Source of the DNA: Escherichia coli
GTDB taxonomy: Bacteria > Pseudomonadota > Gammaproteobacteria > Enterobacterales > Enterobacteriaceae
Strand: one strand, 5' to 3'
Length of the DNA: 36,812 bases
Assembly: GCF_003334315.1 (NCBI RefSeq)
Contig: NZ_QOWR01000048.1
Position 1 is the first letter of the stretch; the number at the start of each line of letters is the position of its first letter. Position numbers and translations under genes: made by a program. Shown here piece by piece: positions 27,972 to 36,690 of this stretch. The notes beneath the pieces are model-generated. The model searched no databases, was not told the origin of the DNA, and saw nothing but the letters and a program-made list of their open reading frames with translations.

Positions 27972-29567
27972 ATGAAACCTGTAAAACCACCTCGTATTAA
28001 TGGACGAGTGCCGGTCCTGTCGGCACAGGAAGCGGTGAATTATATTCCCGACGAAGCAACACTTTGTGTGTTAGGCGCTGGCGGCGGTATTCTGGAAGCC
28101 ACCACGTTAATTACTGCTCTTGCTGATAAATATAAACAGACTCAAACGCCACGTAATTTATCGATTATTAGTCCAACAGGGCTTGGCGATCGCGCCGACC
28201 GCGGTATTAGTCCGCTGGCGCAAGAAGGTCTGCTGAAATGGGCATTATGCGGTCACTGGGGACAATCGCCGCGTATTTCTGATCTCGCAGAACAAAATAA
28301 AATTATTGCTTATAACTATCCACAAGGTGTACTTACACAAACCTTACGCGCCGCCGCAGCCCACCAGCCTGGTATTATTAGTGATATTGGCATCGGGACA
28401 TTTGTCGATCCACGCCAGCAAGGCGGCAAACTGAATGAAGTCACTAAAGAAGACCTGATTAAACTGGTCGAGTTTGATAACAAAGAATATCTCTATTACA
28501 AAGCGATTGCGCCAGATATCGCCTTCATTCGCGCTACCACCTGCGACAGCGAAGGCTACGCCACTTTTGAAGATGAGGTGATGTATCTCGACGCATTGGT
28601 TATTGCCCAGGCGGTGCACAATAACGGCGGTATTGTGATGATGCAGGTGCAGAAAATGGTTAAGAAAGCCACGCTGCATCCTAAATCTGTCCGTATTCCG
28701 GGTTATCTGGTGGATATTGTGGTGGTCGATCCGGATCAAACCCAACTGTATGGCGGTGCACCGGTTAACCGCTTTATTTCTGGTGACTTCACCCTTGATG
28801 ACAGTACCAAACTTAGCCTGCCCCTAAACCAACGTAAATTAGTTGCGCGGCGCGCATTATTCGAAATGCGTAAAGGCGCGGTGGGGAATGTCGGCGTCGG
28901 TATTGCTGACGGCATTGGCCTGGTCGCCCGAGAAGAAGGTTGTGCTGATGACTTTATTCTGACGGTAGAAACAGGTCCGATTGGCGGAATTACTTCACAG
29001 GGGATCGCCTTTGGCGCGAACGTGAATACCCGTGCCATTCTGGATATGACGTCCCAGTTTGATTTTTATCACGGTGGCGGTCTGGATGTTTGTTATTTGA
29101 GTTTTGCTGAAGTCGACCAGCACGGTAACGTCGGCGTGCATAAATTCAATGGTAAAATCATGGGCACCGGTGGATTTATTGATATCAGTGCCACTTCGAA
29201 GAAAATCATTTTCTGCGGCACATTAACTGCGGGCAGTTTAAAAACAGAAATTACCGACGGCAAATTAAATATCGTCCAGGAAGGACGGGTGAAGAAATTT
29301 ATTCGGGAACTACCGGAAATTACTTTCAGCGGAAAAATCGCTCTCGAGCGAGGGCTGGATGTTCGTTATATCACTGAGCGCGCAGTATTCACGCTGAAAG
29401 AAGACGGCCTGCATTTAATCGAAATCGCCCCTGGCGTCGATTTACAAAAAGATATTCTCGACAAAATGGATTTCACCCCAGTGATTTCGCCAGAACTCAA
29501 ACTGATGGACGAAAGATTATTTATCGATGCGGCGATGGGTTTTGTCCTGCCTGAAGCGGCTCATTAA
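27972..29567 (+). CDS. ydiF: YdiF, fused alpha/beta family-I CoA-transferase (acetate/short-chain acyl-CoA transferase)
   Basis: 531 aa, K-12 length, RBS AGGAAT upstream. Confidence 0.92.
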   Translation: MKPVKPPRINGRVPVLSAQEAVNYIPDEATLCVLGAGGGILEATTLITALADKYKQTQTPRNLSIISPTGLGDRADRGISPLAQEGLLKWALCGHWGQSPRISDLAEQNKIIAYNYPQGVLTQTLRAAAAHQPGIISDIGIGTFVDPRQQGGKLNEVTKEDLIKLVEFDNKEYLYYKAIAPDIAFIRATTCDSEGYATFEDEVMYLDALVIAQAVHNNGGIVMMQVQKMVKKATLHPKSVRIPGYLVDIVVVDPDQTQLYGGAPVNRFISGDFTLDDSTKLSLPLNQRKLVARRALFEMRKGAVGNVGVGIADGIGLVAREEGCADDFILTVETGPIGGITSQGIAFGANVNTRAILDMTSQFDFYHGGGLDVCYLSFAEVDQHGNVGVHKFNGKIMGTGGFIDISATSKKIIFCGTLTAGSLKTEITDGKLNIVQEGRVKKFIRELPEITFSGKIALERGLDVRYITERAVFTLKEDGLHLIEIAPGVDLQKDILDKMDFTPVISPELKLMDERLFIDAAMGFVLPEAAH

Positions 29568-29580
29568 CAGGAGTATAATG

Positions 29581-30732
29581 ATGGATTTTTCTTTAACTGA
29601 AGAACAAGAACTGCTGCTGGCCAGTATTCGCGAACTGATTACGACTAACTTTCCGGAAGAGTATTTCCGCACCTGCGATCAAAACGGGACATATCCGCGT
29701 GAGTTTATGCGGGCGCTGGCGGATAACGGTATTTCCATGCTTGGCGTGCCGGAAGAATTTGGTGGTATCCCTGCGGATTACGTCACCCAAATGCTGGCGC
29801 TGATGGAAGTGTCAAAATGCGGTGCTCCGGCATTTTTAATTACCAACGGTCAATGTATTCACAGTATGCGCCGTTTCGGTTCTGCAGAGCAGCTACGTAA
29901 AACGGCAGAAAGCACCCTGGAAACCGGCGACCCCGCCTATGCCCTGGCGTTGACGGAACCAGGTGCTGGCTCAGATAACAACAGTGCCACCACCACTTAC
30001 ACGCGTAAAAACGGCAAGGTTTACATCAACGGACAGAAAACCTTTATTACCGGTGCGAAAGAGTACCCGTATATGCTGGTGTTGGCGCGCGATCCGCAAC
30101 CGAAAGATCCCAAAAAAGCCTTCACCCTGTGGTGGGTCGACTCCAGTAAGCCCGGCATTAAGATTAACCCGCTGCATAAAATCGGCTGGCATATGCTCAG
30201 CACCTGCGAAGTCTATCTCGACAACGTGGAAGTTGAAGAGAGCGACATGGTGGGCGAAGAAGGAATGGGTTTCCTCAATGTGATGTACAACTTTGAGATG
30301 GAGCGCCTGATCAACGCCGCGCGCAGCACCGGCTTTGCCGAATGCGCCTTTGAAGATGCCGCCCGCTATGCCAACCAACGTATCGCTTTTGGTAAGCCCA
30401 TTGGTCATAACCAGATGATCCAGGAAAAACTGGCGCTGATGGCGATTAAGATTGACAACATGCGCAACATGGTGCTGAAAGTGGCATGGCAAGCCGATCA
30501 GCATCAGTCACTGCGCACCAGCGCGGCGCTGGCAAAACTGTATTGCGCACGTACCGCAATGGAAGTCATTGATGATGCGATTCAAATCATGGGCGGTCTG
30601 GGCTATACCGATGAAGCGCGCGTCTCCCGCTTCTGGCGTGATGTCCGTTGTGAACGTATCGGCGGCGGTACAGACGAAATTATGATTTACGTAGCAGGTC
30701 GGCAGATCCTGAAAGACTATCAGAACAAATAA
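29581..30732 (+). CDS. ydiO: YdiO, acyl-CoA dehydrogenase family protein (anaerobic enoyl-CoA reductase candidate)
   Basis: Start at MDFSLTEEQELLLASIRELI, after CAGGAG, giving 383 aa. The track ORF begins upstream inside ydiF. Confidence 0.9.
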   Translation: MDFSLTEEQELLLASIRELITTNFPEEYFRTCDQNGTYPREFMRALADNGISMLGVPEEFGGIPADYVTQMLALMEVSKCGAPAFLITNGQCIHSMRRFGSAEQLRKTAESTLETGDPAYALALTEPGAGSDNNSATTTYTRKNGKVYINGQKTFITGAKEYPYMLVLARDPQPKDPKKAFTLWWVDSSKPGIKINPLHKIGWHMLSTCEVYLDNVEVEESDMVGEEGMGFLNVMYNFEMERLINAARSTGFAECAFEDAARYANQRIAFGKPIGHNQMIQEKLALMAIKIDNMRNMVLKVAWQADQHQSLRTSAALAKLYCARTAMEVIDDAIQIMGGLGYTDEARVSRFWRDVRCERIGGGTDEIMIYVAGRQILKDYQNK

Positions 30733-30774
30733 TCTGCAGGCGGCGCAGCTTCTTAACAAACTGCGCCGCCAGAT
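30733..30774. terminator. Bidirectional terminator hairpin between convergent ydiO and ydiP
   Basis: 10-bp stem GGCGGCGCAG / CTGCGCCGCC with a 12-nt loop, extended by ATCT/AGAT; it fills the whole 42-bp gap. Confidence 0.6.
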
Positions 30775-35069: not shown

Positions 35070-35359
35070 GCCAGAACGCTACGGTTAACGTCGACATCAA
35101 ATTAGGCGTCAATAAATTCCATGTTGATGAGGGCCACCCGCATATCATTATGGCGGCAAATCCCGATATCAATGAATTCCGTAAATTAATGAAAGCCTGC
35201 CCTGCCGGACTTTATAAGCAGGATGACGCAGGAAACATTCATTTTGATTCTGCCGGTTGTCTGGAATGCGGCACCTGTCGGGTGCTGTGCGGCAACACTA
35301 TTCTCGAACAGTGGCAATATCCCGCAGGCACCTTCGGTATTGATTTTCGCTACGGCTAA
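35066..35359 (+). CDS. ydiT: YdiT, FixX-like ferredoxin
   Basis: 97 aa with Cys motif CLECGTC. 4-bp overlap with ydiS. Confidence 0.9.
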   Translation: MSQNATVNVDIKLGVNKFHVDEGHPHIIMAANPDINEFRKLMKACPAGLYKQDDAGNIHFDSAGCLECGTCRVLCGNTILEQWQYPAGTFGIDFRYG

Positions 35360-35415
35360 TCATGCATCCCACAGGCCCGCATCTCGGGCCTGATGTTCTG
35401 TCTCGAGAGTCCAAA

Positions 35416-36690
35416 ATGAAAGTGACATTAACGTTTAACGAACAACGTCGTGCGGCGTATCGTCAGCAAGGGTTATGGGGCGATGCTTCGCTGGCTGATT
35501 ACTGGCAGCAGACCGCTCGTGCGATGCCAGACAAAATTGCCGTGGTCGATAATCATGGTGCATCGTACACCTATAGCGCGCTCGATCACGCCGCGAGCTG
35601 TCTGGCAAACTGGATGTTAGCGAAGGGTATTGAATCAGGCGATCGCATCGCATTTCAACTGCCAGGCTGGTGTGAATTTACCGTTATCTATCTTGCCTGC
35701 CTGAAAACCGGTGCGGTTTCCGTGCCGCTGTTGCCTTCCTGGCGGGAAGCAGAACTGGTGTGGGTGCTCAATAAGTGTCAGGCAAAAATGTTCTTTGCAC
35801 CGACGTTGTTTAAACAAACGCGTCCGGTAGATTTAATCCTGCCGCTGCAAAATCAGCTTCCACAACTACAACAAATTGTAGGCGTGGACAAACTGGCTCC
35901 CGCCACCTCTTCCCTCTCATTAAGTCAGATTATCGCCGACAATATCCCACTGACCACGGCGATAACGACCCACGGCGATGAATTAGCTGCTGTGCTGTTT
36001 ACCTCCGGAACCGAGGGTCTGCCAAAGGGCGTGATGCTAACGCATAACAATATTCTCGCCAGTGAGCGGGCTTATTGCGCGCGGCTGAATCTGACCTGGC
36101 AGGATGTCTTTATGATGCCTGCGCCACTTGGTCACGCAACGGGATTTCTGCATGGCGTAACAGCACCATTTTTAATTGGTGCTCGCAGCGTGTTGTTAGA
36201 TATTTTCACTCCTGATGCATGTCTCGCGCTGCTTGAGCAGCAGCGTTGCACCTGTATGCTAGGCGCAACGCCGTTTGTCTATGATCTTTTGAATGTACTA
36301 GAGAAACAACCCGCGGACCTTTCAGCGCTGCGTTTCTTTCTTTGCGGCGGAACCACAATCCCCAAAAAAGTGGCGCGTGAATGCCAGCAGCTCGGCATTA
36401 AATTATTAAGTGTTTATGGTTCCACAGAAAGTTCGCCGCATGCGGTGGTGAATCTCGATGATCCTTTGTCGCGCTTTATGCACACCGATGGTTACGCTGC
36501 CGCAGGTGTAGAGATTAAAGTGGTCGATGACGCACGCAAGACCTTACCGCCAGGTTGTGAAGGTGAAGAAGCCTCGCGTGGCCCCAATGTGTTTATGGGG
36601 TATTTTGATGAACCTGAATTAACCGCCCGTGCGCTGGATGAAGAAGGCTGGTATTACAGCGGCGATCTCTGCCGCATGGATGAGGCTGGC
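35416..36690 (+). pseudogene. fadK: fadK (ydiD), anaerobic short-chain acyl-CoA synthetase, 3'-truncated by IS1
   Basis: Frame from ATG 35416 (MKVTLTFNEQRRAAYRQQG...; an alternative in-frame ATG lies at 35362) contains the AMP-binding motif LFTSGTEGLPKGV. At 36690/36691 the frame runs straight into IS1 sequence (...CRMDEAG|GNDSNLLIVFYVQ...), so the C-terminal ~120 aa are replaced. Confidence 0.85.

Follow-up and report, generated by a model that had tools for sequence, protein, structure and literature searches.

The window analysed here is a 36,812-nucleotide (nt) stretch of Escherichia coli DNA (contig NZ_QOWR01000048.1). The whole of it is E. coli chromosome, and its segment 27972-36812 was matched in all 5,426 complete E. 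coli genomes of the collection used in this work. The chromosomal stretch spans the 3' part of ydhS, suf, pykF, ydiJ-N, aroD, ydiFOPQRST, and the 5' part of fadK. Both ends of the window consist of the insertion sequence (IS) IS1, and lpp also lies between the two copies. The subject of this report is fadK, the reading frame of which is cut by the right-hand IS1, and the insertion position, which appears to be a natural hot spot for this element. The closest matches to 27972-36812, at or near 100% identity, are ET245, FACU 2024, HS30-1, and HCP6S3_I2; between 27972 and 36690, ET245 differs at one of 8,719 positions (30990). The Prokaryotic Genome Annotation Pipeline (PGAP) gives the gene order in ET245 as ydiF, ydiO, ydiP (opposite strand), ydiQ, ydiR, ydiS, ydiT, fadK, and then the convergent ppsA, and it calls all seven genes upstream of fadK intact. 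The features of the window are collected in Table 1.

A previous interpretation made from the DNA letters (the sequence-only reading) described fadK as interrupted by IS1. This description holds, as the frame is cut after codon 425 exactly where the IS1 terminus starts. The start codon lies at 35416, not 35417, 57 nt past the ydiT stop codon, and the frame ends at 36690 after exactly 425 codons with the residues ...CRMDEAG. We recovered the full-length FadK of 548 residues from strain RM14721, which carries IS1 at the same place, by deleting its IS1 and one copy of the target duplication. Pfam assigns residues 31-397 of this protein to the AMP-binding domain and residues 448-525 to the AMP-binding_C domain, and solved ANL-family enzymes can be aligned with it over its entire length, as far as the ...TSGK motif. 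Lys525, the AMP-binding_C domain, and the hinge motif ITGRKKD (429-435) are all located beyond residue 425. The FadK equivalog model NF004758 scores the fragment at 837 bits versus a cutoff of 736, over profile positions 1-425 of 548 only. The fragment lacks the two-domain ANL architecture and is best regarded as a gene remnant, not as a functional member of the family. In ANL adenylate-forming enzymes, the C-terminal domain contributes the lysine that catalyses adenylation, and its rotation enables thioester formation. Because the whole C-terminal domain has been removed together with the hinge and Lys525, the 425-residue fragment would be inactive in both reactions, and the allele is almost certainly null.

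The frame of the truncated gene reads on into IS1 and stays open to the window end (465 residues) owing to a 1-nt deletion in the IS1 end; the corresponding FadK-IS1 fusion of RM14721 has 25 added residues and then a stop codon. The collection holds fadK at 5,423 places in 5,407 E. coli genomes, two of them on plasmids. As E. coli genomes almost without exception have one fadK copy, a second intact copy that would rescue the function from elsewhere in the genome is unlikely. After fadK, the next gene is the convergent ppsA. The insertion has no polar effect on any other gene, and ydiF, ydiO, and ydiQRST are structurally intact.

The sequence from 36691 (GGTAATGACTCCAACTTACTGATAG... / GGTAATGACTCCAACTTACTGATAGTG...) is the right inverted repeat (IRR) terminus of IS1, entered from outside. 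One indel excepted, it corresponds base for base to the IS1 annotated at this position of fadK in three complete genomes. The left copy ends at position 204 with its left inverted repeat (IRL) end (...AAGTTGGCAGCATCACC / ...GCAGCATCACC). In both window copies, the IS1 terminal inverted repeat (GGTAATGACTCCAACTTA... / GGTGATGCTGCCAACTTA...) is found at the exact boundary with the host DNA. IS1 is a 768-bp element that encodes InsA/InsB with a programmed frameshift, and the copies found elsewhere at this fadK site have that length and a frameshifted transposase; the window contains 122 nt of its right copy and 204 nt of its left copy. The best of approximately 72,000 IS1 places matches the 122-nt fragment with 99.2% identity, and the indel is the sole difference. 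At approximately 36736-36738, the window has CC, versus CCC in all other copies. This unique 1-nt deletion, if real, would frameshift the last ~11 codons of InsB.

IS1 is found at the 9-bp sequence GAGGCTGGC in eight of the complete genomes, in both orientations. Three of them (RM14721, PRO_A-1462-6M-A_ESBL, and EC20-4B-2) have the orientation of the window and an identical junction. In each of the three, a 768-bp IS1 is followed by the 9-bp direct duplication of GAGGCTGGC, a 372-nt fadK remnant, and then ppsA. Insertions in the opposite orientation were found with a synthetic query composed of the fadK flank of the window and the IRL end of IS1. Five genomes (VTB97420v, LST200A, 20377, 22919, and 14EC033) carry such an insertion at the identical position; four of these were inspected, and 22919 was assigned by an identical one-piece match of 272 nt. 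The target-site duplication is present in all seven inspected genomes, in the variant form GAAGCTGGC in 14EC033. As in the window, the insertion in these genomes follows fadK nt 1275 and uses the same 9-bp target, and PGAP flags their fadK as 'incomplete; missing C-terminus'. In an additional genome, 2273-PO3, IS1 is located 12 nt downstream of the shared site.

The window contains the 5' junction only; the remainder of IS1, the second copy of the 9-mer, and the 372-nt fadK remnant would lie beyond it and outside the window. We propose that the junction arose by simple transposition of IS1 into the 9-mer GAGGCTGGC, directly after fadK codon 425. The far side of IS1 would then read GAGGCTGGC followed by TATATAAAAATTACC... 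(fadK nt 1276 onward) and ppsA. The IRL-side junction would join the IRL end of IS1 to GAGGCTGGCTATATAAAAATTACCGG..., running into ppsA, so that a read across it is predicted to contain ...AAGTTGGCAGCATCACC and GAGGCTGGCTATATAAAAATTACCGGACGC. Each of the seven inspected genomes with IS1 at this site has a simple insertion, which makes the same very probable for the window strain.

The carriers of the insertion do not form a clade: in pairwise comparisons, the 2,800 nt upstream of the insertion show 20-81 substitutions, with differences down to 16, 58, 91, and 127 nt from the junction (range across carriers, 16-130 nt). Their IS1 copies belong to the types IS1A, IS1B, and IS1X2 and differ at 14-45 of 768 positions. 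The flank of the window is identical to that of ET245, which has no IS1 here but one at fadK nt 1615. The 2,800-nt flank of VTB97420v is also identical to that of the window, and its IS1 (4151-4918 of L012) occupies the same 9-mer in the opposite orientation. Therefore, these two are independent insertions. The window insertion is also independent of those in the three same-orientation carriers because the flank haplotype differs and the IS1 end is another sequence variant. With 20377 and 22919 treated as possibly clonal, at least eight insertions, including that of the window, appear to have occurred independently at one 9-mer. A single ancestral insertion spread by recombination was considered and rejected, since the single-nucleotide polymorphisms near the junction, the IS1 sequences, and the orientations all vary. 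Under a uniform model, the probability that at least four of 11 events coincide at one of 470 positions is ~2e-6. Because so many insertions share one 9-mer, this position in fadK appears to be a natural IS1 hot spot.

Other IS1 insertions in fadK are located at nt 1182, 1377, 1433, 1493, 1615, and 1637/1638. The last of these is a second recurrent site, occupied in 30EVA1 (L007, 2013) and OXA-181 (L008, 2014); the targets TGTGAAGA and TGTGAAGAG are offset by one base and gave duplications of 8 and 9 bp. The shared 9-mer alone accounts for about half of the interruptions in this part of fadK across the 5,426 complete genomes. It corresponds to fadK codons 423-425 and is GC-rich, and just outside the duplication it adjoins the AT-rich tract TATATAAAAATT. 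The GC content of fadK is 0.52 in the first 1,275 nt, 0.40 in the last 372 nt, and 0.275 in the 40 nt after the target. IS1 is reported to prefer AT-rich targets and to generate 9-bp duplications in ~78% of events (PMC10359306), and the concentration of fadK insertions towards the AT-rich 3' end accords with this preference. The fadK site shares with the IS1 insertions of the IS-trap experiments in that study the 9-bp duplication, AT-rich neighbouring DNA, and recurrent hot spots. However, seven of the nine bases of the fadK target are G or C, while the IS1 duplications reported there are preferentially AT-rich. We regard the site as a probable intrinsic IS1 target, in which the GC-rich 9-mer directly precedes strongly AT-rich DNA where the AT-rich final quarter of fadK begins. 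The 9-mer and the TATATAAAAATT tract probably constitute a 'super-hot spot' determined by sequence or structure, at which the same phosphodiester bonds are attacked in both orientations. A literature search found no paper on fadK together with IS1 insertion.

The genes upstream of fadK have one terminal stop codon each and none internal. The sequence-only reading regarded ydiF, ydiO, and ydiQRST as intact, and the full-length translations agree with it, as does NCBIfam with its family calls. YdiO, YdiQ, YdiR, and YdiS score above the cutoffs of their own models, with CaiA, FixA, FixB, and FixC as the runner-up families. The four adjacent full-length genes ydiQRST constitute a FixABCX-like module, in which YdiT scores below the FixX cutoff and is 63% identical to FixX. 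Outside this region, two small RNA genes, RprA (22755-22862, plus strand) and RydB (17091-17151, minus strand), exceed the Rfam gathering thresholds. They were the only matches in an Rfam scan of the whole window, and the ydi-fadK region had none.

Table 1. Features of the 36,812-nt window discussed in the text
Feature	Position	Strand	Basis or remark
IS1, terminal 204 nt (IRL end), same orientation as the fadK copy	1..204	-	99.5% identity to annotated IS1B of BL12
ydhS 3' remnant, nt 692-1605 of 1605	205..1118	+	window 205 = L005 3001, within ydhS 2310-3914
ydiF, CoA-transferase, 531 aa, intact	27972..29567	+	translation, PGAP of ET245, NCBIfam
ydiO, acyl-CoA dehydrogenase or enoyl-CoA reductase, 383 aa, intact	29581..30732	+	NF008997, 787 bits (cutoff 537)
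ydiP, AraC-family regulator, 303 aa, reading frame intact with R233C	30775..31686	-	translation, NCBIfam
FNR-box sequence, reported for ydiP/ydiQ by chromatin immunoprecipitation	31533..31556	+	PMC1802558 and pattern search
ydiQ, electron transfer flavoprotein beta / FixA-like, 254 aa, intact	32002..32766	+	NF008998, 499 bits, above cutoff
ydiR, electron transfer flavoprotein alpha / FixB-like, 312 aa, intact	32786..33724	+	NF008884, 687 bits, above cutoff
ydiS, FixC-like FAD (flavin adenine dinucleotide) oxidoreductase, 429 aa, intact	33780..35069	+	NF007450, 972 bits, above cutoff
ydiT, FixX-like ferredoxin, 97 aa, intact	35066..35359	+	FixX model, 144 bits, below cutoff 166; 63% identity to FixX
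GC-rich hairpin, 8-bp stem, ydiT-fadK spacer	35372..35392	+	terminator-like match; fold -18.7 kcal/mol, z -2.1
fadK', codons 1-425 of 548	35416..36690	+	in-frame translation; N-terminal AMP-binding domain kept, C-terminal domain gone
9-bp IS1 target GAGGCTGGC	36682..36690		duplicated beyond IS1 in complete genomes with the same insertion
IS1, 122 nt from the IRR end, transposase on minus strand	36691..36812	-	alignment to annotated IS1 copies

The regulator gene ydiP had also been read as intact. Its reading frame is full length, but it carries a private missense change. Base 30990, the sole difference from ET245 in 8.7 kb, converts Arg233 of YdiP to Cys, and this allele is absent from the 5,426 complete genomes by exact matching of a 61-mer. 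Arg233 aligns with an Arg in all four of the best-matching solved DNA-binding domains of the AraC family, including AraC itself. The change may be a lesion that inactivates the regulator of the cluster, or a sequencing error. The FNR box is located within the 5' coding part of ydiP and has one core mismatch: its second half-site reads ATCAG, where the published box has ATCAA. Downstream, fadK lies on the same strand as ydiQRST behind a 56-nt spacer, in which the stable GC-rich hairpin is followed by a weak T tract. This hairpin could act as a weak terminator, an attenuator, or an RNA-stabilising stem; thus, strict co-transcription of fadK with ydiQRST is unproven. Promoter and terminator scans of 31600-36812 gave background levels.

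The sequence-only reading took the cluster to be an anaerobic beta-oxidation system that retains its redox machinery and lacks its dedicated activation enzyme, from which defective anaerobic growth on short- or medium-chain fatty acids would follow. The structural part of this proposal stands, since ydiF, ydiO, and the module resembling electron transfer flavoprotein and FixCX are intact, while the assigned role in beta-oxidation is only a hypothesis. A growth defect would be in line with the severity of the FadK truncation, with the peak in vitro activity of FadK on C6-C8 acids, and with its support of anaerobic growth in fadD mutants (PMC9329746). A comparative study of Salmonella also assigns ydiFO, ydiQRST, and fadHIJK to one pathway of anaerobic beta-oxidation (PMC3967523). 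However, according to a 2022 review (PMC9329746), loss of fadK alone still permits robust growth on every fatty acid, aerobically and anaerobically, because FadD compensates, and growth fails only in the fadD fadK double mutant. FadK is therefore not a 'dedicated' or indispensable enzyme, and in an anaerobic growth test a defect would most likely be seen only if fadD were defective as well. According to the same review, the anaerobic induction of fadK is contested and was not reproduced in transcriptome studies, and the participation of YdiQR in anaerobic growth on fatty acids was proposed solely from the proximity of fadK, and for this role 'experimental evidence is lacking' (PMC9329746). A paper on the y-ome ascribes 'limited functional information' to ydiO. 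The CoA-transferase YdiF, encoded in the same cluster, could also bypass the ligase. Defective anaerobic growth is consequently an unlikely outcome.

We compared the cluster with the carnitine system of K-12, which consists of the same set of parts (CaiA reductase, CaiB transferase, CaiC ligase, and FixABCX). The BLASTP identities between the ydi-cluster proteins and their K-12 paralogues are 48% for YdiO-CaiA, 56% for YdiQ-FixA, 45% for YdiR-FixB, 62% for YdiS-FixC, 63% for YdiT-FixX, and 29% for FadK-CaiC. YdiF has no BLASTP match to CaiB. The ydi cluster thus appears to be a paralogue of caiA/caiC plus fixABCX, and the label 'anaerobic beta-oxidation cluster' is a hypothesis. By analogy, a putative acyl-CoA dehydrogenase/reductase system would use FadK as its priming ligase and YdiF as the transferase that recycles CoA. 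The loss of fadK would be buffered by FadD, which activates fatty acids both aerobically and anaerobically, and possibly by CoA transfer through YdiF. Because FadD does the same job as FadK, the published genetics indicate that the physiological cost of losing fadK is probably small.

The left end of the window bears on the origin of the fadK junction. There, IS1 interrupts ydhS after nt 691. This junction (IS1 at ydhS nt 692) occurs in no complete genome of the collection, in which IS1 is found at other positions of ydhS only. The closest relatives of the window have at least 38 IS1 places. As IS1 fragments bound both ends, the 36.8-kb piece is most likely a short-read contig of an IS1-rich lineage. 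Lying in direct repeat on either side of 36.5 kb that include suf, pykF, lpp, aroD, and the ydi genes, the two IS1 copies are a substrate for deletion or duplication. A closed 37-kb circle bearing IS1 was rejected because the fragments of 122 and 204 nt neither overlap nor total 768 bp. In the close relatives HS30-1, FACU 2024, BL12, GS04, BHD6, PI12, and JX21CE35, ydiF is split in two ('CoA-transferase x2'), and BL12 also has IS1 in ydiL (L005, 25794-26927). In this lineage, rich in IS1, the ydi region appears to have received IS insertions more than once.

Given this setting, the fadK junction might instead have arisen when IS1 mediated a rearrangement, whether by adjacent deletion, by inversion, or through recombination of one IS1 copy with another, with the 3' end of fadK and perhaps ppsA deleted or placed elsewhere. 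The two same-orientation copies that bound the window and the abundance of IS1 in its relatives are compatible with such an event, and deletion endpoints in fadK do occur among complete genomes. In approximately 27 of them, the 3' tile of fadK is present and the initial 1 kb is missing, and in 39 the 3' tile is covered only in part. Such genomes suggest that deletions, perhaps adjacent ones mediated by IS1, have an endpoint within the AT-rich 3' region of the gene. However, the seven inspected genomes with IS1 at this position all retain the 9-bp duplication and normal downstream synteny, as expected for simple insertions, and the window itself contains no sign of a rearrangement. A rearranged junction in the window strain is quite unlikely.

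The recurrence of the insertion could also reflect selection for the loss or C-terminal truncation of FadK, that is, an adaptive pseudogene, instead of a target preference. The number of apparently independent insertions, the additional IS1 copies at fadK nt 1182-1650, the IS1 insertions in ydiF and ydiL of relatives, and the private change at a conserved Arg of YdiP all fit this possibility. The ydi and fadK genes also decay in extraintestinal Salmonella. As in those serovars, function has been lost here within the ydiFO/ydiQRST/fadK/ydiP set (PMC3967523). However, the Salmonella decay is lineage-wide and has been read as niche adaptation, whereas here there are one IS insertion and one missense change in a single strain, the close relatives of which mostly retain fadK. 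Moreover, selection should spread insertions along the gene, and especially over its 5' end. We tiled fadK with 500-nt queries against the complete genomes; split places numbered 1, 5, and 16 for the tiles at nt 1-500, 501-1000, and 1025-1524, respectively, and 6, 5, and 39 matched genomes had less than 80% coverage of these tiles. Half of the 3' insertions fall on one 9-mer in both orientations, and the fadK segment is contiguous in ~99% of the complete genomes. The 3' bias and the pile-up at a single site in both orientations therefore point to a target preference of the transposase, and selection for fadK loss is a very unlikely cause. A chimeric contig end, which the sequence-only reading had named as a possible refutation, might be suspected because the window stops 122 nt into IS1 and because the 1-nt deletion absent from the other IS1 places suggests poorer sequence there, but the break falls exactly on the first base of the IS1 terminal repeat, and the junction and its 9-bp duplication recur in long-read complete genomes (three with the identical junction and five more with the opposite-orientation one), so that an assembly artefact is extremely improbable.

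Several points weigh against our preferred account, a simple insertion at an intrinsic IS1 target that leaves a null fadK allele. The 9-bp target has a GC content of 78%, which is atypical for the reported AT-rich preference of IS1. Only one junction lies in the window, and the simple insertion is carried over to it from the seven inspected same-site genomes. The null status of the truncated FadK derives from knowledge of its family, and the interpretation of the window as a contig depends on the IS1 copies at both of its ends.

The fadK::IS1 allele is a routine pseudogenisation of a non-essential and redundant gene. Events of this kind are known, and the same allele is already annotated as a pseudogene in public genomes. 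The modestly new point is that this exact position in fadK is a natural IS1 hot spot. The ydi cluster is not a proven anaerobic beta-oxidation system, and caution is required because a phenotype is not predictable from the loss of fadK alone. The hot spot offers material for work on how IS1 selects its targets and helps in judging whether fadK pseudogenes are signs of selection. If the super-hot spot is true, it would be a compact natural substrate for the study of target choice by the IS1 transposase or by H-NS/IHF.

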